From contig NC_086378.1 of the NCBI RefSeq assembly GCF_036588685.1, positions 67,642,001 through 67,706,000 of the forward strand: a stretch of 64,000 nucleotides of DNA, written 5' to 3'. A program made the translations under genes and the position numbers. The DNA is from Mytilus trossulus (Eukaryota). Of the stretch, positions 835 to 54,953 are shown in pieces. Positions within the stretch are counted from its first letter, which is position 1. Each line of letters begins with the position of its first letter. Below the pieces are notes generated by a model. It made no database searches. It was not told the DNA's origin and saw nothing but the letters and a program-made list of their open reading frames with translations.

Positions 835-1303
835 GTTTATCGTTCTATTAATGGTATTTTTTCCTCTCCCTAAGAAAGTTTTACGCTTGACGAAAGCAAG
901 CTTGATAACGTCTCCTCTCGCATTGTGACGCCGCTGATAACTTCTTCTCTCACATTGTGATGTCGCTGATAATGCCTGGTCTCGTTTTGAAGTCTTGATA
1001 CGAGAATTACTGAGCGACAGAGCAGGGTGATATAGGCGTAGGGAAGGACGATAAATTGAAATACACGTAAGCAAATCATATACAAATGCTTACAGTATAT
1101 ATAAATTTTATTTACCGTAATAAAAACTATATAAAATCCATTTGATATGATTAAATAGAGATGTGGTATTAGCGCCATTCTATATGACGAAATAAGCGAT
1201 GATTGGTTCAATATTTTATATATTGGTCATGTGGTTAATAAAAATCCTTTATATTTATTGATTTAAACCCACCTTTAAATGATGTATTTATTTTTAATTC
1301 CAG

Positions 1304-1630
1304 ACTTTGCATTTTAACGATGTGTTTGGTGAACCAGATGGAGTCCATAGTATTGATTGTGTGTGGAAATTATCTGCTAAATGTTTTGACTGCTGGAAGC
1401 TTCTAACCTACAACTTGTTGACAATATTTTATGGCATCTGTATTGCAGCTGAGTGGGGATGCGAGTTCGCCTATATTGCGTTCTGGCATATATGGATTAT
1501 TTCACCGTTTATGAAGATTTTTGAAATTAACTGCGGACTTTGTCAGAGAATATATGCTTCCTGCGTTAATTGTTGTATTGTACCATGGTGTGAGGCATGT
1601 GGTGCCATATTCCATGCATTCAAACGATAA
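1304..1630 (+). CDS. Caveolin family protein, terminal coding exon (upstream exons not identified in window)
   Basis: Pyrimidine tract + AG acceptor (tttaattccag|ACT) at 1302-1303. Reads TLHFNDVFGEPDGVHSIDCVWKLS..., matching the caveolin signature FEDVIAEPxGxHSxDxxW, then a hydrophobic hairpin (LLTIFYGICIAAEWGCEFAYIAFWHIWIISP) and a Cys-rich C-terminus. Stop TAA at 1628-1630. Confidence 0.92.
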   Translation, partial: TLHFNDVFGEPDGVHSIDCVWKLSAKCFDCWKLLTYNLLTIFYGICIAAEWGCEFAYIAFWHIWIISPFMKIFEINCGLCQRIYASCVNCCIVPWCEACGAIFHAFKR

Positions 1631-7800: not shown

Positions 7801-10800
7801 AGTTACTGAATATTAAATCATAATAATTGTAGTTGATCCTTGAAGTTCTAATGCTGTATGTAAGACATTTATTTAATTCTTCTTGCTCCGGCTTCAATAC
7901 TGAAGAATGCATGTAGTTGCTCATGCGTGATCGACAAAACTTTATACAAATTCATAAAAAAAATGATAACAATTTAGGTATTTGTAGATACAGGTTGTGG
8001 TTAGAAATATGTTTTGTTTTCATTTTTTTTTTTATTGCATTTGTTTATTTAAGGCTAGAAACAACAGCTGATGTTAGCTGATCTCTAAAGATGTCAACAG
8101 AGGTGATTTCAATAATAATTTGAGGTAGCAAGTTCCAAATTATAATTGTCCGTGTAAGTATGACCATTTGTATGTGCCCTGGAAGTTTGTATATGTCTGT
8201 GTGTCACAGTGGAAAAATGGACAAAAATTGATTTTGAGACTTTTTGGACATTTTGTTAAAGATTTTGTAAAACCAATGTTTTTGTTATATTTGCAATGTT
8301 TCACTAGGCATTTTGATATTTTTATTGTGCAACATTTAAGTCAAGATTAGAAGATTAAGCTAATCTAATTTCAAGTTTTAATTTGTTTTTCAATTAGCGA
8401 CATTTTACTTCAAAATGATCTATTATTCGTAAATGTTTAATCCCATAAATAAGTCCGTATGTTCTATTGTTAATTATCATCTATGTGCATTTTCCTGTAA
8501 TCCGTTAATTGAATTTTCTCACTCATTTGGAGAAATATTTGTCAAGTCTATTCAAGTAGTTTTGGTTTGTTATATAAACTATGTTGTTATTTTGATGTGG
8601 CAGATTGGATTTAGTATAACACTGAGCAGTTCCAACTCTGTACAATTGTATTCCATGCTGAACTTATTAAATAATACATCGCGCTAACCAGAGTCGTCTT
8701 TTGTTACAAGAGCTAGTCCCAGAGTAACAGTCCGTGCAGACGTGTCGTACTGTTTATTGTGTGTGTGGTTCCAGACCAACACATTTCCCAGTCACAGATA
8801 CACCCAGAATTTATTTGTGACATTTGGTGCCAGGTCCGGGTCGTGTTGACTTTTCAGCTCAACACGCTTTCCTGATACCTCAAAGCAGCAAGCGAGTTAC
8901 CAGTTCCCCAGAGACGTACATATACATGTAGTAGATTTGCAGTGATGGAATACAACTTCAGGTCACAGTGGAGACCATGGTTTTTCCAGATGCGTCAGAT
9001 TCCAGCGTGCGCCAGATGTGGAAATCAGCATAGACAAACATTTTGTTATGCAGCAAGTAAGAAATGTTTTAAATGTAATCACGTAGGACATTACGCCCGA
9101 ATGTGTGTCTTTCGATCTAACCAGGAAATTCAACAGTGTAAAGATGTGCCCCAGATCAGAACCAAATCAAAATCGCAAAAGGATAGAGATGCTAGACGTA
9201 TAAAGGAATATTTCGATTCAAAATCATTTACCCGTAGTTTGCCGTTTGCTAATCTGCGTGATTCTGCATTCAAAAGTTATTTGGACTCTACAAGTATACT
9301 GAAATGTGAATTAACGTGTGTTAAAAAGAAACTTTCAAAAGTGCAGAAAAAAGGTGCAAGTCAGGCAGCTGAAATCTTGAATTTACGAGAACAGTTACGT
9401 CATTTACAAAGTGTGGCAATCGAAAATGAAAAGCTACGTGCAGATGTTCTAAGCTTACAAGACAACCAGAAAAGACAATCCGTTAATGAAGACAACTGTC
9501 AAAACCACGTTAAACGCATAAATGATTTGGAATTATACCTTCAAACAAAAACTGATTTTATTTACGACATCCAACAAAAATATGAAGAAATATCTACAGG
9601 AAAGAGACAGCTTTTTAATGAAATTTCCATTTAACATTTCAAAGAGGACGAGTATTACAATCAAATTTTAGAACTAAATATCAAATTAAAAGCAATTGAA
9701 TGCGAAAAAGAACAATTACAATCCGCGCTAAACCAAAGGACCGTTTACGTGAACCAGAACCAAGCCAGAACTTTTCAACCGCAATTTGAACATTTGCGTT
9801 AATTCTATTCGAAGCACGGGGTCGTGCTTCAGTGGGAGAAGAGGCATGTTGTCACAGTGGAAAAATGGACAAAAATTGATTTTGAGACTTTTTGGACAAT
9901 TTGTTAAAGATTTTGTAAAACCAATGTTTTTGTTATATTTGCAATGTTTCACTAGGCATTTTGATATTTTTATTGTGCAATATTTAAGTCAAGATTAGAA
10001 GATTAAGCTAATCTAATTCCAGGTTTTAATTTGTTTTTCAATTAGCGACATTTTACTTCAAAATTATCTATTATTCGTAAATGGTTAATCCCATAAATAA
10101 GTCCGTATGTTCTATTGTTAATTATCATCTATGTGCTTATTTTTCTGTAATCCGTTAATTGAATTTTCTCACTCATTTAGAGAAATATTTGTCAAGACTA
10201 TTCAAGTAGTTTTGGTTTGTTATATAAACTATATTGTTATTTTGATGTGGTAGATTGGATTAAGTATAACACTGAGCAGTTCCAACTCTGTACAATTGTA
10301 TTCCATGCTGAACTTATTAAATAATACATCGCGCTAACCAGAGTCGTCTTTTGTTACAAGAGCTAGTCCCAGAGTAAGAGTCCGTGCAGACTTGTCGTAC
10401 TGTTTATTGTGTGCGTGTGTGGTTCCAGACCAACACATTTCCCAGTCACAGATACACCCAGAATTTATTTGTGACATGTGTATGGTTTTGTCTTGTTCTG
10501 CTGTCTGCTTGCTCAAGAATGGCTACAAAGACAGTGTATTAATTTATAAAAAAAACATTCAATTTCGAATGAATCAAACAACAGCGAAACTCTAAACCAG
10601 TGAATCAGTCTTTTCTAAAGTTAACTTACCTGAATTAACTGTTATAAGTGTATCATTTTGGCAAATATATCTTTGACATGGCCGAGTAGGATGATCCAAA
10701 ACTTGTCCTTCCATCAAATCACCTATTTCGTTGTCGTGACATGTTGCTGTTTTAACAAAAAAAGGCTGATCATATATTCTGCTTATTCAACATATTATTA

Positions 10801-18100: not shown

Positions 18101-18378
18101 TTAAAACTTGTACTGTTTTTCACTTCAGGGATTAATAGAAATAAAGTGTTTATTTGACAATATTCTATATTTGGAACAAGATATTAACAAGGAGTATCTG
18201 ATTGAATTACATCTTTTGTTGAAATACTAGTTTGTACTAAAGTATGCTGTCTTCTAGATAGTTTGCTGTTGTTTAATTCCTTTTGACTGAGTGACATGGG
18301 ACCCACTTCTCATTTTATTTATATGATGATTAATATAATCAACATGAACGCCTCTACAATGAAGTTGGAATAATCGAT

Positions 18379-19076
18379 TTATACTTTCAGAAGGAGATCT
18401 TTCTGCAAGATTTCAATTATTTCTGATCGTTTATTTTTTTCCGCGTAAAATAAAGCTGTTCGACCATCGTTGTCTTTCTGATCGACGCAAGCTTTATGTT
18501 CGCACAATAATCGAACTATATCCACTCTGCCTTCCCTACAGGCAAGGTGTAAAGGCGATCTGTTATCGGATTTACTTTGATTAACGTCTGCACCATTTTC
18601 TAAAAGCAGCTTTGCAATCTCTGTATGGCCGTTGTAACTAGCTAGGTGTAGCGGAGAAGATCCATTTTTGTTGGGTTCATTTACGACTCCGCCATTCTTA
18701 AGAAGAAGTTCGACCACATCTTTGTGATTTTCATGTACTGCCAGATGTAACGGTGTTGATGTTTTGAGATTATTAACTTGGTGAACGTTGGCTCCATTTT
18801 GTAAGAGCAATTCAACTATTTGTAAATGACCTTCGTGTGACGCTAAATGTAAGGGTGACGATCCATTTTCATTACCTTTATTTACAACTTCTGTAGCTCC
18901 TTTACTGAGCAAAAGTTCAACGACATTCGTATGACCTTCATGTGACGCTATGTGCAGTGGTGTTAAACCCGAATGATTCGCTTCATTTACTAGAACTCCT
19001 TCTTGAATTAAAACTTCTACCAATGACTTATTTCCCTCATGACATGCGTCAACCAATGATGTTGAGAATTCCATTT
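18379..19076 (-). CDS. Terminal exon encoding 7 ankyrin repeats
   Basis: Repeated G-x-(T/S)PLH(L/I)A...GH..(V/I)VELLL..GA motifs at ~33-aa spacing; AG acceptor at 19077-19078. Confidence 0.95.
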
Positions 19077-22000
19077 CTAAAACAGATTAACGAATATCTT
19101 GTTCAATAAAATAATGATAAAACAAAGAACAAAATAGATATATAGATTCACAACTGCAACAAGTGTATTACGATATTTCTCCAGCACTCGATACAATTAA
19201 ATTTTAATATTTAAAGCGCGAAACTTGTCGAGAGTGGAGGAATATCATAATACAGAGTAATAAGGTAGAATCTGTTTCTTTAGTGATTTGTATCCTTTCT
19301 GTTCAAAAATATAAAGATAGCTGTGTAGTTTTATGTGACGTCATCAGACATGGTCGCGTTTTTTCATGACATCACAATAGGACAATAGGTGAACGTTACA
19401 GTTAAATGTCGACCAATCAATTTCCAAGAACATATTTTTCATTTACAAGGAGAAATATTTTTCACCCACGAATGAAGAATTGTAAAAAGACCGCAAACAT
19501 TAGAGAAAAGGTAATATAACTGATTATACGATATCTCATAACAGACGTAACGTAATGTCACCACCTCCTTAAACTATCATAAAATTATTTTTGAAAGATT
19601 TGTATTAAAAACACCCTCCTTAACTATAGAATAATCATTTTTAAGAATACAGCAACATAGTTTATGTAAGCTTTCGTTTTTTATTATAAAAATTTAGCAA
19701 AATAACATGCCAAACTTATAAGTATGACACCGATAACATGTGTTTCAAATTCAATGATACAGCATAGTCGATATACTTGTCCTTTACTTGTAGTAAGGTG
19801 TGAACGTTTGGTCGAATTCAAAGCCAATATATACCGCTGCTTTTAAGATATACAGCGCTTTCTGAGATTTAGGCTTTGTCTTTATTATATGCATATTATT
19901 TGTACTGTGTCATTTAGAAAAGTGTCATACAGTTACACAATCATTCTCATTTTGATAAATACAGTAATGTCTGTAAACTTGACAATCCGAATTTTTATTG
20001 CCAAATTAACGAGTTTTGTTTTGAAACTTACGATTCCTACTAGGATGTTTAGCTTGTCCGAATGACTCGATTTCTGCTCCGATTGTTGGGTTTAACTTTT
20101 TCACAGCCTAGGTATAGATACAAAGATATTTAATAGATTATCAATCAAATCGATATAAATGTAACACTTCCTCAGTATAGTATGTGGGGGAAATAGACGT
20201 GTCACAAAGTTAATATACGAATAGCACTTCAAGCCCTAGTAGAGACCATCTCAAATTGTATTGATGCTATTTTATGCCGGCGACCTGTATGGGTTTTTTT
20301 ATATGCCGCATAGATATTAAAGGATGTAATCTTTCGTTGACTTGTTGGTGATCTTCTGCTGTTGTCTTTTTCTATGGTCGGGTTGTTGTCTCTCTGACAC
20401 ATTTCCCATTTCCATCCAGCTGAAGGACGACGTCGGGTGCGGGAATTTCTCGCTACATTAAAGACCTGTTCCTGACCTTCTGATGATGTCTTTTCTATGG
20501 TCGGGTTGTTGTCACTCTGACACATTCCCCATTTCCATCCAGCTGAAGGACGACGTCGGGTGCGGGATTTCTCGCTACATTAAAGACCTGTTGCTGACCT
20601 TCTGATGATGTCTATTCTATGGTCGGGTTGTTGTCACTCTGACACATTCCCCATTTCCATTATCAATTGTATTTCGTTAAATATTTTAATTCTTTTAGAA
20701 TTGTTAGAAAAAATTGTCACCGTATGTCAATACGTGAGTACCAGTGAAAATTTCAAACGTTTTCGAATTGATTAGCCTTGATTGAGCACGCGAAACCTCT
20801 TTCAATTAAAACTGAATGCTACGAATATCACACTCGTGCTGACATTGGCGTTAATCACCGACCATTCAATAAATAACCACGAACACGAAAATACAATTGA
20901 TAATTTATTCCACTTTCATGTTGGTCTATATGCGAACATTTAGCACATGCAAATTGAAAGCGGCTTAACAAAATCAGGTTGTGTCTTAAAATAGAGCGTT
21001 CACATTTTTTTACAAATCCGCATGAGTATAAAAATGTGCTAAACTTATCCTAAATTTATTAGCATATCAATAAACTCTTAAGGTATAACTCCATTAATAC
21101 AAAATCCCGTCAAAATTCAATAACAGCTAATTTTAAACCATGTGTGCATTATACAAAAGTATAGGCCATGAATTTTTAAATATAATAAATAGATGCAACT
21201 GCATTGAAAATTGCCTTTCAAACATGTAGGACTATTGTTATTTGCCCGTTTTGGGAAATTCTTATTTACAAAACTGTTTTATCTGCCTGGGAATTCTGTT
21301 TTATTTTTTCGAAAGAATACAATTATAAGACGACGGCCAAGGTGACTCGGATATACAATATACAGCTGAAAAACACTAAGAAAATCAGTAAAATAAGTCT
21401 GCACCAGCGTTACAAATTTATATGTCTATTAGGTCATCATCCCAGCATAATTTAACATCATTCATTTAATCTTTTCCAAAACGTGATTTTGTCAAATTCT
21501 ATTAATGTTTGGGTCAAAACTCAGTTAGGACCACCCCTCAAGTTCAGTTGAGTATGCAATAAATTATTAAAATTTGTTTCTCAGAAGACTTCCTTGAGAT
21601 GTCACAATTGTTTGCTACATTTTAGCATTCAAATGCTGTGTACTTATTCCTTTTATAATCTATGAAGAACATAGAATTGAGGAAGAAAATGGGGAATGTG
21701 TCAGAGAGACAACAACCCGACCAAAGATCGGAAAACAGACGAAGGTCACCAATGGGTTTTAATACAGAGAGAACATCCCTCACATTTTATTTTTCCAGTT
21801 CGCTGTATTTTACAAGTACCGCAAATAATATAAAAAAACTGACAGTATTGAATATTTAAACTAATTAATATACTGGCCTTTATGACATCATCGCAAATTT
21901 GTTTGAATTCTGAATCTGGAAAGCTAAAATATGTCGCATGTGCTATTTTATTTCGGTAGAATTTAATTGTAGATACCGCTGCTTCATCATTGCGGTCAGT

Positions 22001-23400
22001 TGGAACTGGTACCACGTTATCACAAATTTTCATTCCAACAATATGCCGCAGGAGGCACGTCATTAACGATATATCCAGGTGTTCAGATCGAAGTTCCACA
22101 CCTAAATATACAAGACAAAATATACCTTTTGACTTTCAGCATGTACATGTATCTCTTAAAATTTATTTCTCCCTATCATTTATTAATCAATTTCAAATAC
22201 ATTGAAGGATTAGCACTCATAGCTAGGTATCTTATGTCACAATCCCAGTAGTCAGCACTTTTTGTGCTGACATGATTTGTCATTGATATTGTTATATTTA
22301 TAAATTTACTGTTTACAAATTTTTGATTTTTTAAAAATACTAAGGCTTTTCTGCCTCAGACAATGATTTCATTAGCTGTATTTGGCAAAACATTTAGGAA
22401 TTTTGGTCCTCAATCCTCTTCAACTTTGTACTTTATTTGGCCTTTTTAACTTTTTGGATTCGAGCGTCACTGATGAGGCTTTTGTAGACGAAACGCGCGT
22501 CTGGCGTATACTAAATTTAGTCCTGGTATCTATGATGAGTTTATGTACCCTATACTGTTTTATCAACGTCAAGAATACATTGATAATTATATTTAAAAAA
22601 GTAGACTTCGTCCCTCTTGATCTTTATACTGTTACTATTAGACGCTCGTGTGACAGTGTGGAATATATATCTACCGTGTCATAAACTTGAATAACCGCAT
22701 AAACCTCATGCTAAGCAGCAGATAACAAAAAAGACCAGAACCACATAGACAAATTAAATGTGTATGTGTGTGTGTGTGTTAAATTTGTGGATTGAGTATA
22801 TATAATTTAAAAAGTAAAATCACAAGAATACTGAGCTCCGAGAGATATTCAATCGGAAAGTCCCTAATCACATGGCAAAATCAAATGAAAAATCACATCA
22901 CAAACGAATGGACAACAACTGTTATATTCCTGACTTGTTACAAGCATTTTTAAATGTAGAAATGCAAAAATAACTTCTTGTTGTGATTTGTAATACACCT
23001 GTACTTTATTTCATGTTCATGTCAAAAACTATCATAAAATAGTTGTACTTAAATCCTTACAAATATAAATTGAAAGTAGGCTTACAACTCCAGAAATTGA
23101 ATAATAAAATATAATGTTATTAGGCTAAGCGAACAACAAATGGATACACTCCATGTCTTATACAAAAAGAAAAGTATAAATACCTTTTGGTGGTTTTAAG
23201 ATTTTCTGTTGGGTTTGACTTAATCGACCCAGCTTGTTGTTGTTCAAATGCTTGAAAACTTCTTTCTGCAGTCTAACGGGGTCAATTTCTCTATCAACGA
23301 TATATCTAAGTGCCTGGAGTGAATGTTTAGACAGCATGAAAGCGACATTGAGAAAGTTTTCTTCTTCTTTTGACCGTGTAATAGTGACTGATGAAGACAT
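18379..23400 (-). CDS. DZIP3/hRUL138-like HEPN domain + 7 ankyrin repeat protein, ~404 aa; coding exons 23184-23400, 21878-22101, 20032-20107, 18379-19076
   Basis: Intron phases 1/0/1 join into one frame: MSSSVTITRSKEEENFLNVAFMLSKHSLQALRYIVDREIDPVRLQKEV...QQKILKPPKG-VELRSEHLDISLMTCLLRHI...PTDRNDEAAVSTIKFYRNKIAHATYFSFPDSEFKQICDDVIK-AVKKLNPTIGAEIESFGQAKHPSRNQ-MEFSTSLVDAC... Motifs EEENF, DISLMxxLLR and YRNxxAH are typical of DZIP3-like HEPN. Alternative in-frame ATG at 23421. Confidence 0.85.
20335..20670. repeat. Common interspersed repeat fragment with an internal ~122-bp tandem duplication
   Basis: CTATGGTCGGGTTGTTGTCNCTCTGACACATTCCCCATTTCCAT occurs three times; same family at ~25780-26070, 21675-21760 and 32385-32700. 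Confidence 0.75.
21878..22101 (-). CDS. HEPN catalytic exon (R-X4-H motif RNKIAH)
   Basis: Acceptor tatttag|GT at 22102-22103; open frame carrying LDISLMTCLLRH and IKFYRNKIAH; ends at AAG|GCCAGT (GC donor). Confidence 0.85.
22465..22506 (+). ncRNA. Minimal type I hammerhead ribozyme within a ~350-bp retrozyme/Penelope-type repeat (stem II has one mismatch)
   Basis: CGTCA-CTGATGA-GGC ttttgta GAC-GAAAC-GCGC-GTC-TGGCG. Confidence 0.7.
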
Positions 23401-23442
23401 GACGGTAAAACATTGGTGCATCACGGCACGGTATACATCATT
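23184..23442 (-). CDS. First coding exon of the HEPN-ankyrin gene (includes short 5' UTR)
   Basis: Acceptor ttttttag at 23443-23444; donor G|GTATTT at 23183; encodes SKEEENFLNVAFML...ALRYIVDREI. Confidence 0.8.
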
Positions 23443-23907: not shown

Positions 23908-26263
23908 AAAGTTGTGTTTTCTAACCTGAAACTGTCGACCGTTTTCTAAAAATCAATATTATTGAAAGATCTAAAATTGAAATATGGGCTATTGTGACCA
24001 TATCCCCTTTTGGATTTGACTTTAGTATTGTTTAATACCTTGAATTGTAATAGCATATAAATTGCAATACGAGTTTTAAACATAACTGTTATTAACCGCT
24101 TGCAACACAGCTTTCATGTCTACATTTGTACATTACGATTTAACATGTTTAATACATTCTTCGAAGATATTAGTCAACCATTTGTGTTTTTTCCTATTAT
24201 AAATTTGGTTATTCTTAACAACAACTTACAATATGTGGATGCATGTCTCAACACGTAACGAAGATGATTCGTTATGTTTCATATTAATTTCAAGAAGTAA
24301 ATATTAATTTATTTATGAAAGATATATAACTCGATTATATCTTTAAAACATTCATCATGAGACTGAGGTCTACTCAGTGAGTTATTTACACGCTAAATTG
24401 AGACAGAAAGGGATGTAACGGGTATCACAAATTTCAAACTTCTTGTGTGTTATTCGACGCCGGGCGTTCACAATTGAAAGCTTCAAACAAGATTAAGATG
24501 GTGATCACGAAAAAAAGATTAAATCGCAATTCTAAAGTATTTTGTTACATCTAAGCTACCTGCACAAAAAGAAAAAGAACGATTCAGCGAAAACAGTCTA
24601 TGAACTAAGCCCAAGAATTTGCATCAAAATGATGTTGAATAAAAAGTGAACTTATCTCCTGCACCACTTAGAAAACACCATATTTTCAAATTAAACTGTC
24701 AAATCAATTATATTATGTTAGTTCACAGACACCACATGGTTTCTCTCTTCACCTAAAGGTGACAATTGTTGCAAGGAGGGATAAAAATGAAATACACAAT
24801 ACCATTCAAGAAAGTTATTTTTTTTCATTATATATATATATATATATATATGATTTTGATTTTTTTACAAAATTTATTTTTTTAATAAATTGCAAGATTA
24901 AAATAATTTAAAAACCATATATAAAAATAATTAGTTTTCAAATATATCTTGAAAGGCAGGATACATCAAAGAATATTTCCAATTTATTTTTTTTAAATTT
25001 AGAAAAAAGGGGGAGGGTCGACCCCAAATGTGCCTGTGCATTTTCCTAAAACTTTCAAAGTTTTACAATTTTGTGTTTAAAACATCTGTTACTTAAGTAA
25101 TATTATCGGTCGCCTTATCAGTATGAAATGACAGATTTATAGCACTACTTAACCATGAAGATATGAAATTTTCACTTTCGTGTGCATGGATCTAGGACTG
25201 AAAACGCGATTCGGACTCCTAGCTTATTTGCTTTGGTGTATAACCAACGACTAAGCATACTTTGTACTAGTTTGTATTTTGACAACTTATGTTGCAGTAA
25301 AGAGTTGTGCTGTGACAAGTTCTTATCAGAATAAAAATTATTACTCTTCATAAATAATTCTTAATCCATTTTTAAAGACTCAATCTCTCAAAGCTCAGCC
25401 TGACCAACCAATGTCTTCCATGTTCTGATTTTTTTAATGTTACTACAATTAATAAAGGAAAATCATCGTTTTATTGTTCAGAACACTTTATATCACTTTG
25501 GCATCAACAAAAATGTGAATGTTACGTAATTACGTACGTGCAATTCAATGAAATTGATTATTATGAAATACATTTCTTTTCTTTATACTTGTTTTACCTA
25601 AGGCAGGGGAGGATAAACATTTAAATTTATTTAAGACTTTCCTTCTCGTCTGTACGATAACATTACCATTTCATGCACAATACCAAATAAATCTGTGGTG
25701 AAATGAATTTGATATTGTATAGCCAAAGATCGTTTTGTTGAATACTAATACAAAATCATATATATATATTTAACTCACCAAGACATGTTTAACCCCGCCG
25801 CATGTTTGTGCCTGTCCCAAGCCAGGAGCCTCTGGCCTTTGTTAGTCCTGTAATATTTTAATTTTAGTTTCTTGTGTATAATTTGGAAATTAGTATGGCG
25901 TTAATTATCACTGAACTAGTATGTATTTGTTTAGGGGGCAGCTGAAGGACGCCTCCGGGTGCAGGAATTTCTCGCTACATTGAAGACCTGTTGGTGACCC
26001 TCTGCTGTTGTTTTTTCTATGGTCGGGTTGTTGTTTCTCACATTCCCCATTTCCATTCTCAATTTTATTTCTGACCAATCATATACATGTATTGAAATTC
26101 AAACTCGAGACTGCGAAAAGTTTGTAAACCGTTAGATTTAATAGCTATAATGAAACTATGAATATGGATAATGACTTGTTTGTGGTGACTCCAAAACTTT
26201 GATATTTTTTATTTCACCTATGTTTATAATAGTTATCAAAGGTACCAGGATTATAATTGTGTA

Positions 26264-52720: not shown

Positions 52721-52895
52721 TTCGGTGGGACATATATTACCGAAAATGGGACGATAGCAGGATAAAATTGATTCTCGCATCGCAATTTTTAAAGAATGAA
52801 TCTTATAGATATAATCATGGTTTAGTCCCACCTCTTATTATGCTAATGAAGTATTTTTCCGTATGGGTGGGATTAAACCATGATTATATATAAAC

Positions 52896-54953
52896 GGACA
52901 GACTTTCCTTTTAAAACGTTTTCAACAGATGTTTAATACTTGTCTGTCTTCAGGTATATACCAAACATCTTGGGCTGAAGGTTATATTACACCAATTTTT
53001 AAAAGCAACGATACAAGTGACCCTAACAATTATAGAGGAATAACAATAACAAGTGCAATTGGAAAGCTTTTTAATAGAATATTAAGTCTAAGACTGGACA
53101 AATTTCTTCAGGAACATAATATTATACATGATAGTCAAATTGGATTCACAAGGAAAGCCAGAACTGCAGATCATATGTTTATTTTAAACTGTATTATTAA
53201 CAAATACTGTAATTCAAAAGAAGGTAGACTGTTTGCCTGTTTTGTTGATTTTCAGAAGGCTTTTGACACTGTTATACATACAGGGATCAAGATTAAACTA
53301 CTAGATATTGGGGCTGGGTCTTATTTTTATAACATTATTAAAAGTATGTATGAAATTAGCAAATCATGTGTCAAAATTCAAAATCAAGTAAGTGATTTTT
53401 TCCCATTAGATATTGGAGTCAAACAAGGTGACAACCTCAGTCCGAATTTATTCAAGATATTCATAAATGATTTGCCCAGATATTTGTCAGATACTAGAGA
53501 CCCAGTTAATGTCAATGACAAAGATCTACATTGTTTAATGTATGCTGATGATATTGTTTTATTATCTACATCAGCTGAAGGACTACAAGAAAAGCTGGGA
53601 ATGCTTGATAAATTTTGCAAAGATTGGTGTCTCAATGTGAATACTAATAAGACAAAGGTGCTGATTTTCAACAAGGCAGGCAGACATGTAAAACAGATAT
53701 TCACATTTCAGAATATAAATCTGGAATGTGTTTCAAAATACAAATACCTAGGTTTATATTTAAGCTCATCTGGTTTATTCAGTTATGCTCAAAATAAACT
53801 ATACAAAAAATCCCTGAAAGCTCATTTCAAATTAAGGAAAGATCTTTTATCACTTAATCCTAATGTAAAAACAAGTATTCATGTTTTTGACCACACTGTA
53901 AAACCTATTTTATTATATGGTAGCGAAATATGGGGGATGTTTAATTCTTTTTCCTCTAAATGTAAGAAGGAAGATATATCTTTTGAAAAATTATATTCAG
54001 GTTTACCCTGTGAGAAACTTCATATAAAATTTTGTAAATTTATACTTGGGGTACACAAGAAAACAACAAATGCTGCAGTGTTATCTGAACTTGGAAGATT
54101 TCTAATATATTTTAATATTATAAAAGGAATGTTATTGTACTGGTATAGATTAGAGAATTTAGGTAATAATTTTCCTCTATTAAAATAGAAAATGTTGAGT
54201 TACTTAAAATAATATGTAATTTTATATACAAACATCTTCCTTAGTGAAGATTAGTTAAAGGAAATCTATGTGTGTATATACATTTGATTGGACATAGAAA
54301 ATTATATTCATCTGAATATCACAAACATACTACGTAGCCGATTAAAAACAAAGAAAAAAATTGTTAAGATATATTATTTATTCAAATGTTCTCTTATATC
54401 CTTGAGGCATCGTCCCCTGGTATCAAATGCATTCAAGTTACCTATGATGCTTCCTTGTTTGCTTTTGATACAGGTAGGAAAGAGACATTTACACACATTT
54501 TACATGCCTATGGCCCATAAGGTATCGCCCCCTGGTGTCAGCTGCCTTTAGGAAACCATAATGCTTTCCTATTTGCTGCTGACACAGGATGAGTCATGGA
54601 CATGTTTAATTTCTACTTTCTTTTTGGCTAATTATTATATATTTAATTGATCCAACTTTTTGTGTACTATACATATGTGGATATCTATTTTTCTTTTTTT
54701 CTTTTTGGGCTGCTTGTTTGTTATCTATATCAACCACACTTGCAATAAAATGCATTAGTATTAAAAAAAACTACATACTTATAATAGATTCTTTATCTAC
54801 GTATTCTTTAAGAACTTAAATAGTTCTCGTTTAACTTTTTTTTTTTATCTCATTGTTTGTATTGTATTATGAAAAAATTATTGATGTTGTAATGTTTATG
54901 CCCTTTGGGGCCCATAATTGGAAAATAAAATATCTTATCTTATCTATCTATCT
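52896..54953 (+). mobile_element. 5'-truncated non-LTR retrotransposon (LINE, CR1/L2-group-like) with (TATCT)n tail and TATAAAC target duplication
   Basis: RT ORF; 3' hairpin GCCCTTTGGGGC + AATAAA + TATCT repeats at ~54900-54953; TATAAAC at 52889-52895 and 54954-54960; splits one unit of a local satellite. Confidence 0.85.
52929..54188 (+). CDS. LINE ORF2 reverse transcriptase domain (truncated; no endonuclease domain)
   Basis: PIFK...DPNNYRGI, QIGF, FVDFQKAFD, GVKQGDNLSPNLF, YADD, KTKVL, YKYLG. Confidence 0.93.
   Translation: MFNTCLSSGIYQTSWAEGYITPIFKSNDTSDPNNYRGITITSAIGKLFNRILSLRLDKFLQEHNIIHDSQIGFTRKARTADHMFILNCIINKYCNSKEGRLFACFVDFQKAFDTVIHTGIKIKLLDIGAGSYFYNIIKSMYEISKSCVKIQNQVSDFFPLDIGVKQGDNLSPNLFKIFINDLPRYLSDTRDPVNVNDKDLHCLMYADDIVLLSTSAEGLQEKLGMLDKFCKDWCLNVNTNKTKVLIFNKAGRHVKQIFTFQNINLECVSKYKYLGLYLSSSGLFSYAQNKLYKKSLKAHFKLRKDLLSLNPNVKTSIHVFDHTVKPILLYGSEIWGMFNSFSSKCKKEDISFEKLYSGLPCEKLHIKFCKFILGVHKKTTNAAVLSELGRFLIYFNIIKGMLLYWYRLENLGNNFPLLK

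Follow-up and report, generated by a model that had tools for sequence, protein, structure and literature searches.

Does the seemingly stand-alone ankyrin open reading frame near the start of this segment encode a protein by itself, or is it the end of a larger one, and what might that protein do? The original prediction, made for the window (the whole 64,000-nucleotide stretch of Mytilus trossulus DNA that was analysed), was that this frame is the last exon of a HEPN-ankyrin protein of about 404 residues, formed from three listed open reading frames and an unlisted 76-bp exon (20032-20107). These pieces do join in frame: four minus-strand exons (23442-23184, 22101-21878, 20107-20032 and 19076-18379) form a single frame of 418 codons without a stop, the three junctions having phases 1/0/1. 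Translation from the ATG at 23400 gives 404 aa, and from the in-frame ATG at 23421 it gives 411 aa; the model matches RefSeq XP_063440968.1 (M. trossulus) exon by exon. The features are:

23184..23442, minus strand: exon A, with a short leader, two out-of-frame upstream ORFs, the ATG at 23400 (alternative in-frame ATG at 23421) and the N-terminal half of the HEPN domain
21878..22101, minus strand: exon B, the HEPN core, ending in a GC donor; exon B alone scores 48.3 bits against PF18738
21976..21977, minus strand: alternative GT donor within exon B, use of which deletes 33 aa including the catalytic motif
21938..21955, minus strand: putative catalytic motif R-N-K-I-A-H (R129, N130 and H134 in the 411-aa numbering)
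21876..21877, minus strand: non-canonical GC donor of intron 2
20032..20107, minus strand: exon C, 76 bp, the last HEPN helices and the start of the linker, with AG/GT ends and joints in contigs
18379..19076, minus strand: coding part of exon D, seven ankyrin repeats (Pfam Ank and repeat alignment) and the stop codon

We looked for the splice junctions in Logan contigs from 8 of the 19 listed runs, which are presumed to be RNA; contigs for the gene were present in all 8. The exon C/D joint, 20032/19076, was found in 4/4 runs, and the joints 23184/22101 and 21878/20107 were each found in 4/4 runs of a second set, the latter (GC-AG) with only 22-24 letters on its short side. All three junctions on which the original prediction depended are therefore present in contigs. 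A single 1132-letter contig carries exons A, B and D and leaves a gap of 74 letters, a size that suits exon C, and contigs extend past the stop into the 3' UTR, to about 18150-18210. At the other end, exon A is flanked by an AG acceptor before 23442, where contig cover starts, and a GT donor after 23184. Since an acceptor precedes exon A, a further 5' exon exists; our search of the contigs did not find it, and no joint links the covered stretch 24606-24738 to exon A.

Introns 1 and 3 are GT-AG, while intron 2 has a GC donor (AAG/GCCAGT). The corresponding site is GT in nine other HEPN exons examined in the same genome (eight loci read in frame, the ninth a compact paralogue), and in all three compact paralogues described below. 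Use of the GT donor within exon B reproduces exactly RefSeq isoform X2 (XP_063440969.1, 378 aa), and the joint of this motif-less form was seen in 1/4 runs of Logan contigs, at a depth of 2.2 vs 5.6. This donor requires a Val codon, and the orthologues of M. edulis, M. galloprovincialis (RefSeq), M. californianus and M. coruscus have Ile there. Because an Ile codon cannot start with GT, the motif-less isoform looks like leakage from the weak GC donor. A possible third isoform, from a GT donor after 21874 directly to exon D, would be in frame, 380 aa long and of the same form as M. galloprovincialis VDI79953.1; no joint for it was found among the contig joints listed. The original prediction mentioned neither the GC donor, nor the isoform lacking the motif, nor the subfamily of paralogues.

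The N-terminal part matches Pfam HEPN_DZIP3 (PF18738) at residues 58-169 with 59.7 bits, above the gathering score of 27, as expected if the domain had been identified correctly. The R-X4-H motif is likewise intact: RNKIAH starts at 21955, spans R129 to H134 and fits Rx4-6H with Asn after the Arg, and in a 58-row alignment R and N are present in 58/58 rows and H in 55/58. The predicted structure of the domain is all-helical, with seven helices (pLDDT 93.7), and matches HEPN_DZIP3 clusters of the Atlas at TM 0.88, both sides being predicted structures. In a wide PDB structure search, solved HEPNs matched at Z 5.5-7.5 only; Csm6 was among the top rows (Z 7.5, rmsd 4.2, 119 aligned), below the decisive level of the tool. 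For the HEPN model, Foldseek gave no solved structure as a significant match; when the HEPN alignment was run as a profile against the PDB, nothing came up at E<=10, and searches with the full-length protein returned only ankyrin proteins.

The linker is shorter than the 26 or so residues initially assigned to it. Exon C encodes mostly the last HEPN helices (helices 142-159 and 161-170 in the model, with the Pfam match running to residue 169), confidence is low only at 174-184, and the true linker has about 11-14 aa. It does hold that neither an NTPase nor a coiled coil lies between HEPN and ankyrins: we found no Pfam NTPase family and no P-loop in the protein, exon C is joined to the ankyrin exon in 4/4 runs, and intron 3 showed no remnant of nSTAND3. 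Without the nSTAND3 NTPase, there would be no ATP-driven oligomerisation in the compact protein.

The gene is on record under automatic names. XP_063440968.1 is called 'tankyrase-2-like', with its HEPN domain unnamed, and RefSeq and UniRef records (the M. edulis orthologue is UniRef A0A8S3S796) carry this name, 'ankyrin-1-like' or 'ANK', with no function attached. Tankyrases are defined by SAM and PARP catalytic domains; Pfam found neither here, Ank and HEPN being the only families matched. The protein belongs with the DZIP3/hRUL138-like HEPN family (PF18738; Anantharaman et al. 2013, PMC3710099), with which it shares the profile match, the R-N-X3-H motif and the N-terminal position of the domain. 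Table 1 of that paper lists DZIP3-type HEPN domains fused to ankyrin, TPR, NACHT, CARD, DEATH and LRR, with an expansion in oyster; a two-part form with only HEPN and ankyrins is not described in the portions of the paper available to us. With a RefSeq model in place and HEPN-ankyrin fusions tabulated in 2013, the original prediction overstated the discovery. Neither this gene nor any NTPase-less HEPN-ankyrin protein is the subject of a paper in the literature examined; supplements (pearl oyster domain combinations, and those of 2013) may bear on novelty.

Orthologues in M. edulis, M. galloprovincialis, M. californianus and M. coruscus are 85-90% identical and keep RNKIAH. The sequence searches run found no compact HEPN-ankyrin protein outside Mytilus. 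Three paralogues with the same exon skeleton lie on another contig, making a compact subfamily of four loci. Two of these three have a hydrophobic C-terminal tail, and one paralogue is interrupted by an in-frame stop in the present assembly, so not all of the subfamily is essential. The genome contains at least 98 related HEPN exons, and in a 41-row HEPN tree the compact clade (11 rows, support 97/87) falls among HEPN-nSTAND3-ankyrin receptors; the tree is midpoint-rooted and gives no direction of NTPase loss. Bivalve and cnidarian receptors that combine HEPN, STAND (NACHT, nSTAND3) and repeats (PMC9646362, PMC8260672; VDI51927.1, XP_071145672.1) have the same HEPN type, with an ankyrin C-terminus. 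Two STAND paralogues on C12 have the exon layout of the compact gene, with phases 1/0/1 (read fully in one, and for exons C and D in the other). In contrast to the compact gene, as originally proposed for its larger relatives, their exon C is longer and coiled-coil-like, and their exon D holds an NTPase with its P-loop. From the motif to the first ankyrin motif there are 80-90 residues in the compact form vs 346-750 in STAND forms. The compact genes are therefore likely to be NTPase-less derivatives of HEPN-nSTAND3-ankyrin receptors, judging by exon structure and sequence. Three proteins with no P-loop and 133-309 residues before the first ankyrin motif (P0081, P0086, P0087) were left out of the compact count. 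A second independent compact lineage suggested by the tree (P0034, XP_076109489.1, 517 aa) was dropped: in this genome, the matching locus contains an ORF with a P-loop, and breaks in frame separate its exon C from the ankyrin part, so that the model appears to splice its way around a broken STAND gene.

Broken STAND loci that give compact-looking models, as well as the weak GC donor and the upstream ORFs, are what one would expect if the gene itself were a decayed receptor fragment with no function. The open frame, the spliced contigs, the motif intact across five Mytilus species and the four loci with one skeleton largely refute this explanation, which we consider highly improbable. A derivative of the same skeleton, in a genome so rich in related HEPN exons, could instead be a helper or dampener of the larger receptors, its HEPN pairing with theirs, or with the motif-less isoform of the same gene, and tuning output with no sensing of its own. 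However, the catalytic motif is intact in the compact paralogues and all full-length orthologues, the HEPN of the compact protein is less than 50% identical to those of STAND paralogues, and the motif-less isoform is barred by the Ile codon in four other species. Such a role seems unlikely.

Our preferred reading, to which we give a probability of about one half, is that the NTPase-less derivative is an RNase gated by a ligand in its ankyrin groove. A HEPN-nSTAND3-ankyrin immune receptor would have lost its coiled coil and NTPase, leaving a 404-411-aa protein of HEPN and seven ankyrin repeats; a ligand held by the conserved groove would bring two HEPN domains together and switch the RNase on. 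The intact motif suggests RNase activity, and a dimer would probably be needed, as in all characterised HEPN nucleases, which require two juxtaposed motifs (10.1101/760058, in the portion available). The architecture points to gating by the ankyrins and the family to an immune role, which makes 'ligand-gated RNase' a reasonable name for the predicted function. Counting against the model, it offers no explanation for how the protein would be held inactive at rest without an NTPase.

The groove is the same in orthologues at 36-40 of 42 positions. In one paralogue lineage it is kept better than outer positions (26/41 vs 13/42, p 0.004), while in the other two the difference is not significant (p 0.15 and 0.82); the two rows that reach significance are an orthologous pair. 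Because the groove changes so little between species, a single conserved ligand is favoured, most likely one protein or peptide, pathogen- or host-derived, and not a variable pathogen surface. A conserved groove, a single-copy and slowly changing orthologue and contigs in every run examined would also suit an RNase or RNA-binding adaptor (like Las1) that is constitutive and non-immune and whose ankyrins dock a fixed partner. The gene is, however, seen only in Mytilus by the searches run and is nested in a fast-turnover, immune-type expansion (HEPN tree; PMC9646362, PMC8260672), and we regard this alternative as unlikely.

Contrary to expectation, the groove as a whole is not basic but net acidic: its 42 positions hold 6 K/R vs 10 D/E and 5 H, with a His-Glu stripe along repeats 1-4, and the ankyrin domain has a net charge of -8. 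The exception is a small basic/aromatic patch in repeats 5-7 (K316/Y327/R352/R360/R385/Y390), of which K316, R352, R360, Y/F327 and Y390 are kept in 10/10 compact proteins and R385 in 9/10. This patch would fit an analogue of RNase L, in which a nucleotide second messenger (2-5A made by a mussel OAS, or a cGLR product) would dock on the ankyrins and so pair the HEPN domains. RNase L likewise joins an ankyrin sensor and a HEPN-superfamily RNase in one chain. Of 41 candidates scored in the genome, 11 were OAS1_C exon matches, and the single KEN match among five candidates lies in a gene of IRE1 type, around which the 50 kb read contain no ankyrin. A Mab-21_C ORF also lies head to head with the gene, 4.6 kb away.

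Against a nucleotide trigger stand the acidic groove, the 17-23% frequency that K/R have anyway at the patch positions, and the lack of the pseudokinase lobe on which the 2-5A pocket of RNase L depends (PMC5927464, in the portion available). Pfam matched neither a kinase nor KEN (PF06479) in the compact protein, which has the reverse domain order, a HEPN of DZIP3 type rather than KEN type, and seven repeats where RNase L has nine. The Mab-21 neighbour is truncated (227 aa) with no NTase-domain match, and there is no Mab-21 match in 160 kb around the paralogues. As a dedicated partner it was set aside as weak: the ORF is truncated, and its one homologue among 144 candidates disagrees in frame. 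The genome has at least 150 Mab-21-type loci, with a post hoc chance of adjacency of 0.2-0.9%. The resemblance to RNase L is one of analogy, not homology, and a nucleotide trigger appears distinctly improbable. No more probable is the wider proposal that the compact proteins arose independently as a counterpart of RNase L, gated by a nucleotide made by OAS or cGLR. They would then be the missing effector in a genome with OAS-like genes but no RNase L detected, and their soluble and tail-anchored versions would cover cytosolic and membrane-bound RNA.

In bivalves and corals the animal DZIP3-type HEPN proteins have expanded greatly; they are presumed from their motif to be immune RNases, with activity not shown in the literature examined. 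Most are STAND proteins of 800-2000 aa, whereas the compact member has 404 aa, is soluble and has one short linker. It is therefore a convenient handle for a first biochemical test, with the motif-less isoform as a natural control and orthologues in five species. If a nucleotide were the trigger, OAS or cGLR signalling in invertebrates would gain an identified effector. The gene also raises the question of how an NLR-like receptor is controlled once its NTPase is lost.

The window gene is a real, conserved and spliced gene. Its four exons, placed from the spliced frame and from contig joints, are:

23442-23184, minus strand, exon A
22101-21878, minus strand, exon B
20107-20032, minus strand, exon C
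19076-18379, minus strand, exon D

Joined, they form 418 codons with no stop in frame (phases 1/0/1) and encode 404 aa (ATG at 23400) or 411 aa (ATG at 23421), in agreement with the original prediction of a single spliced frame of ~404 aa. Introns 1 and 3 are GT-AG, and intron 2 starts with a GC donor (GC-AG). The predicted joints (23184/22101, 21878/20107 and 20032/19076) were sought in contigs from 8 of the 19 runs that cover parts of the window, none of the 19 being recorded as RNA. All were present: C-D in 4/4 runs of a first contig set, and both A-B and the GC-AG B-C joint, the latter with a short side of just 22-24 letters, in 4/4 runs of a second. A single contig of 1132 letters spans A, B and D, and its 74-letter gap fits exon C. 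Numerous exon D positions in these runs do not match the window, so the runs come from other individuals or sister species. RefSeq already holds the protein (XP_063440968.1, M. trossulus, 411 aa, 'tankyrase-2-like isoform X1').

An AG acceptor lies immediately 5' of exon A, and a 5' partner exon was looked for and not found. Because the ATG of compact paralogues directly follows the equivalent acceptor, and annotated orthologues begin at the matching Met, a further coding exon upstream appears unlikely. Upstream ATGs in exon A (23441-23327, minus strand) are out of frame; one ORF, of 6 codons, lies where the paralogues start, and a second, of 28 codons, overlaps the main start. These ORFs could possibly damp translation.

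The Pfam scan of the protein bore out the HEPN assignment (HEPN_DZIP3, residues 58-169, 59.7 bits against a cut-off of 27) and also matched ankyrin families; it gave no match to any NTPase, kinase or PARP family. The putative catalytic R-X4-H motif is intact, as predicted: it reads RNKIAH (R129-H134 of the 411-aa form, beginning at 21955), and in a HEPN alignment of 58 rows R and N are retained in 58/58 and H in 55/58. The HEPN model (pLDDT 93.7) resembles HEPN_DZIP3 models in the Atlas (TM 0.88); Foldseek gave no significant match among solved structures, and a wide structure search ranked Csm6 first, with a Z of just 7.5. In the full-length model (pLDDT 77) helices run through residue 170 and disorder is limited to 174-184, so that exon C mostly encodes the end of HEPN. 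The linker to the seven C-terminal ankyrin repeats is thus modelled at about 11-14 residues, and the ~26 aa first proposed is too long.

A GT donor further upstream in exon B, at 21977, yields RefSeq isoform X2 (378 aa) residue for residue, and its use deletes 33 residues, motif included. Its joint occurs in 1/4 runs, at a depth of 2.2 versus 5.6. This donor requires a Val codon, which is Ile in the RefSeq/GenBank orthologues of M. edulis, M. galloprovincialis, M. californianus and M. coruscus; Val is retained only in a divergent M. galloprovincialis copy (VDI79953/4). At the junction ending exon B, the other HEPN exons that were examined carry GT, not GC. Isoform X2 is probably leakage from a weak GC donor rather than a conserved switch.

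The three nearest ankyrin exons in the M. trossulus genome (57-62%) all lie on one contig, each with a HEPN exon a few kb ahead:

C8:39899600-40014470 (L024-L036), cluster of three compact HEPN-ankyrin paralogues

All three have the four-exon skeleton of the window gene, the R-X4-H motif and no NTPase. Two carry a 19-residue hydrophobic C-terminal tail (mean hydropathy 2.1-2.2, versus 0.4 for the window protein); one of these has fewer ankyrin repeats, and the other has an in-frame TAG in exon B in this assembly, its M. coruscus orthologue (CAC5393883.1) having an open frame. The cluster also contains an additional partial ankyrin copy (39906850-39907150) and GPCR-like ORFs between the compact genes.

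In a midpoint-rooted HEPN tree of 41 rows, from which isoforms or near-duplicates (P0001, P0003, P0004, P0009), odd rows (P0030, P0050, P0064) and matches under 105 residues were omitted, the compact genes form one clade (11 rows, support 97/87) amid STAND-bearing relatives. Two HEPN-nSTAND3-ankyrin genes on contig C12 share their exon layout but have a longer, coiled-coil-like exon C, and their exon D starts with a P-loop. The simplest origin for the compact form would be a STAND-type gene that lost its coiled coil and NTPase. A second compact lineage proved only apparent. Its locus (C6:5395500-5404200, L052-L053) is a frame-broken HEPN-nSTAND3-ankyrin gene, for which the M. galloprovincialis RefSeq model omits the NTPase and so looks falsely compact; compact gene models therefore need checking. 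The window gene passes: intron 3 holds no NTPase remnant and the C-D joint is spliced, upholding the claim that no NTPase separates HEPN from the ankyrins.

In two word-based searches, all close relatives (5/12 and 4/203 candidates) came from Mytilus or from unnamed contigs. Cluster look-ups gave orthologues of 85-90% identity in four further Mytilus species; that the gene is a dead remnant is highly improbable. An exhaustive exon B search gave 78 matches, the 33 longest of which were scanned, and 9/9 of those looked up were Mytilus, the short query saying little on range beyond that genus. One M. galloprovincialis copy (VDI79954.1, VDI79953.1; P0013/P0003) has a HEPN just 81% identical to that of the window protein and an ankyrin part near-identical to the RefSeq orthologue, possibly through recombination or gene conversion between paralogues. 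The M. trossulus genome holds at least 98 related HEPN exons, and a role as helper or dampener of STAND paralogues is conceivable, if unlikely.

By NLR logic the STAND NTPase supplies oligomerisation, as would apply in the large HEPN relatives; in the window protein the ankyrins would be the sole candidate control element. Since every characterised HEPN nuclease, according to parts of 10.1101/760058, requires two juxtaposed motifs, we favour a protein in which a ligand would drive dimerisation or relieve autoinhibition (probability about 0.5). A constitutive role outside immunity is doubtful.

Gating by nucleotide, as in RNase L, would find some support in the genome:

C9:4.86-4.88 Mb, C10:68.1-69.9 Mb, C8:70.1 Mb, C1:32.2 Mb and C95, OAS1_C-like exons (11 exon matches among 41 candidates, from putative enzyme genes)
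C7:60417702, the only KEN-domain match (1 among 5 candidates), in an IRE1-type gene

We take the latter gene to be IRE1 from motifs in its luminal, membrane and kinase exons, and no ankyrin occurs within the 50 kb read around it. Against such gating, the groove of the window protein is acidic overall and the 2-5A pocket of RNase L includes the pseudokinase lobe (parts of PMC5927464); an 'RNase L' homologue is listed for Nematostella in part of PMC8476169, so invertebrates as a whole may not lack RNase L. We consider this analogy improbable.

The basic ankyrin groove originally expected is absent: with groove and outer positions assigned by the ankyrin consensus rather than by coordinates, 42 groove positions hold 6 K/R, 10 D/E and 5 H, and the domain has a net charge of -8. 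His-Glu recurs at two equivalent positions in each of repeats 1-4, a pair that 18 related proteins show in 1/71 repeats; part of this pattern could reflect duplication of repeats within the domain. Residues K316, R352, R360, Y/F327 and Y390 are retained in 10/10 compact proteins and R385 in 9/10, against a K/R background of 17-23% at such positions. Orthologues are identical at 36-40 of the 42 positions. In one paralogue lineage groove identity exceeds outer identity (26/41 vs 13/42 and 27/41 vs 14/42, p 0.004, the two comparisons not being mutually independent); two others showed no significant difference (p 0.15 and 0.82). This conservation suggests a fixed ligand rather than an arms-race surface.

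The window also contains:

27098-27432 and 28045-28785, plus strand, truncated Mab-21/cGLR-like gene in two spliced pieces (Mab-21_C match only)
8876-9634, plus strand, gag-like ORF with zinc-knuckle/coiled-coil (translation, by eye)
52884-54188, plus strand, LINE-type reverse transcriptase ORF (translation, by eye)
1298-1630, plus strand, caveolin-like exon (translation, by eye)

The Mab-21/cGLR-like gene (227 aa from the first Met) and the HEPN-ankyrin gene are in head-to-head orientation. One contig joins the two Mab-21/cGLR-like pieces, with gaps relative to the window, and the Mab-21_C ORF (28045-28785) has no counterpart near the compact paralogues.

Ankyrin is among the fusions of DZIP3-type HEPN, which is expanded in oyster (PMC3710099, Table 1 row and section 16). 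In pearl oyster 194/202 members have the motif and many lack NACHT, according to parts of PMC9646362, whose main text, to that extent, does not mention ankyrin; HEPN-NACHT expansions and shuffled bivalve architectures appear in sections of PMC8260672 and PMC8195603. The portions consulted of PMC9334734, PMC7773633 and PMC11817969 contain nothing on the window gene. None of the literature found describes a HEPN-ankyrin that lacks an NTPase, though supplementary domain lists might include such forms. The compact HEPN-ankyrins are apparently a small, undescribed subfamily inside a known, heavily shuffled family, and the worth of the window gene is as a small, testable member of a putative RNase class.
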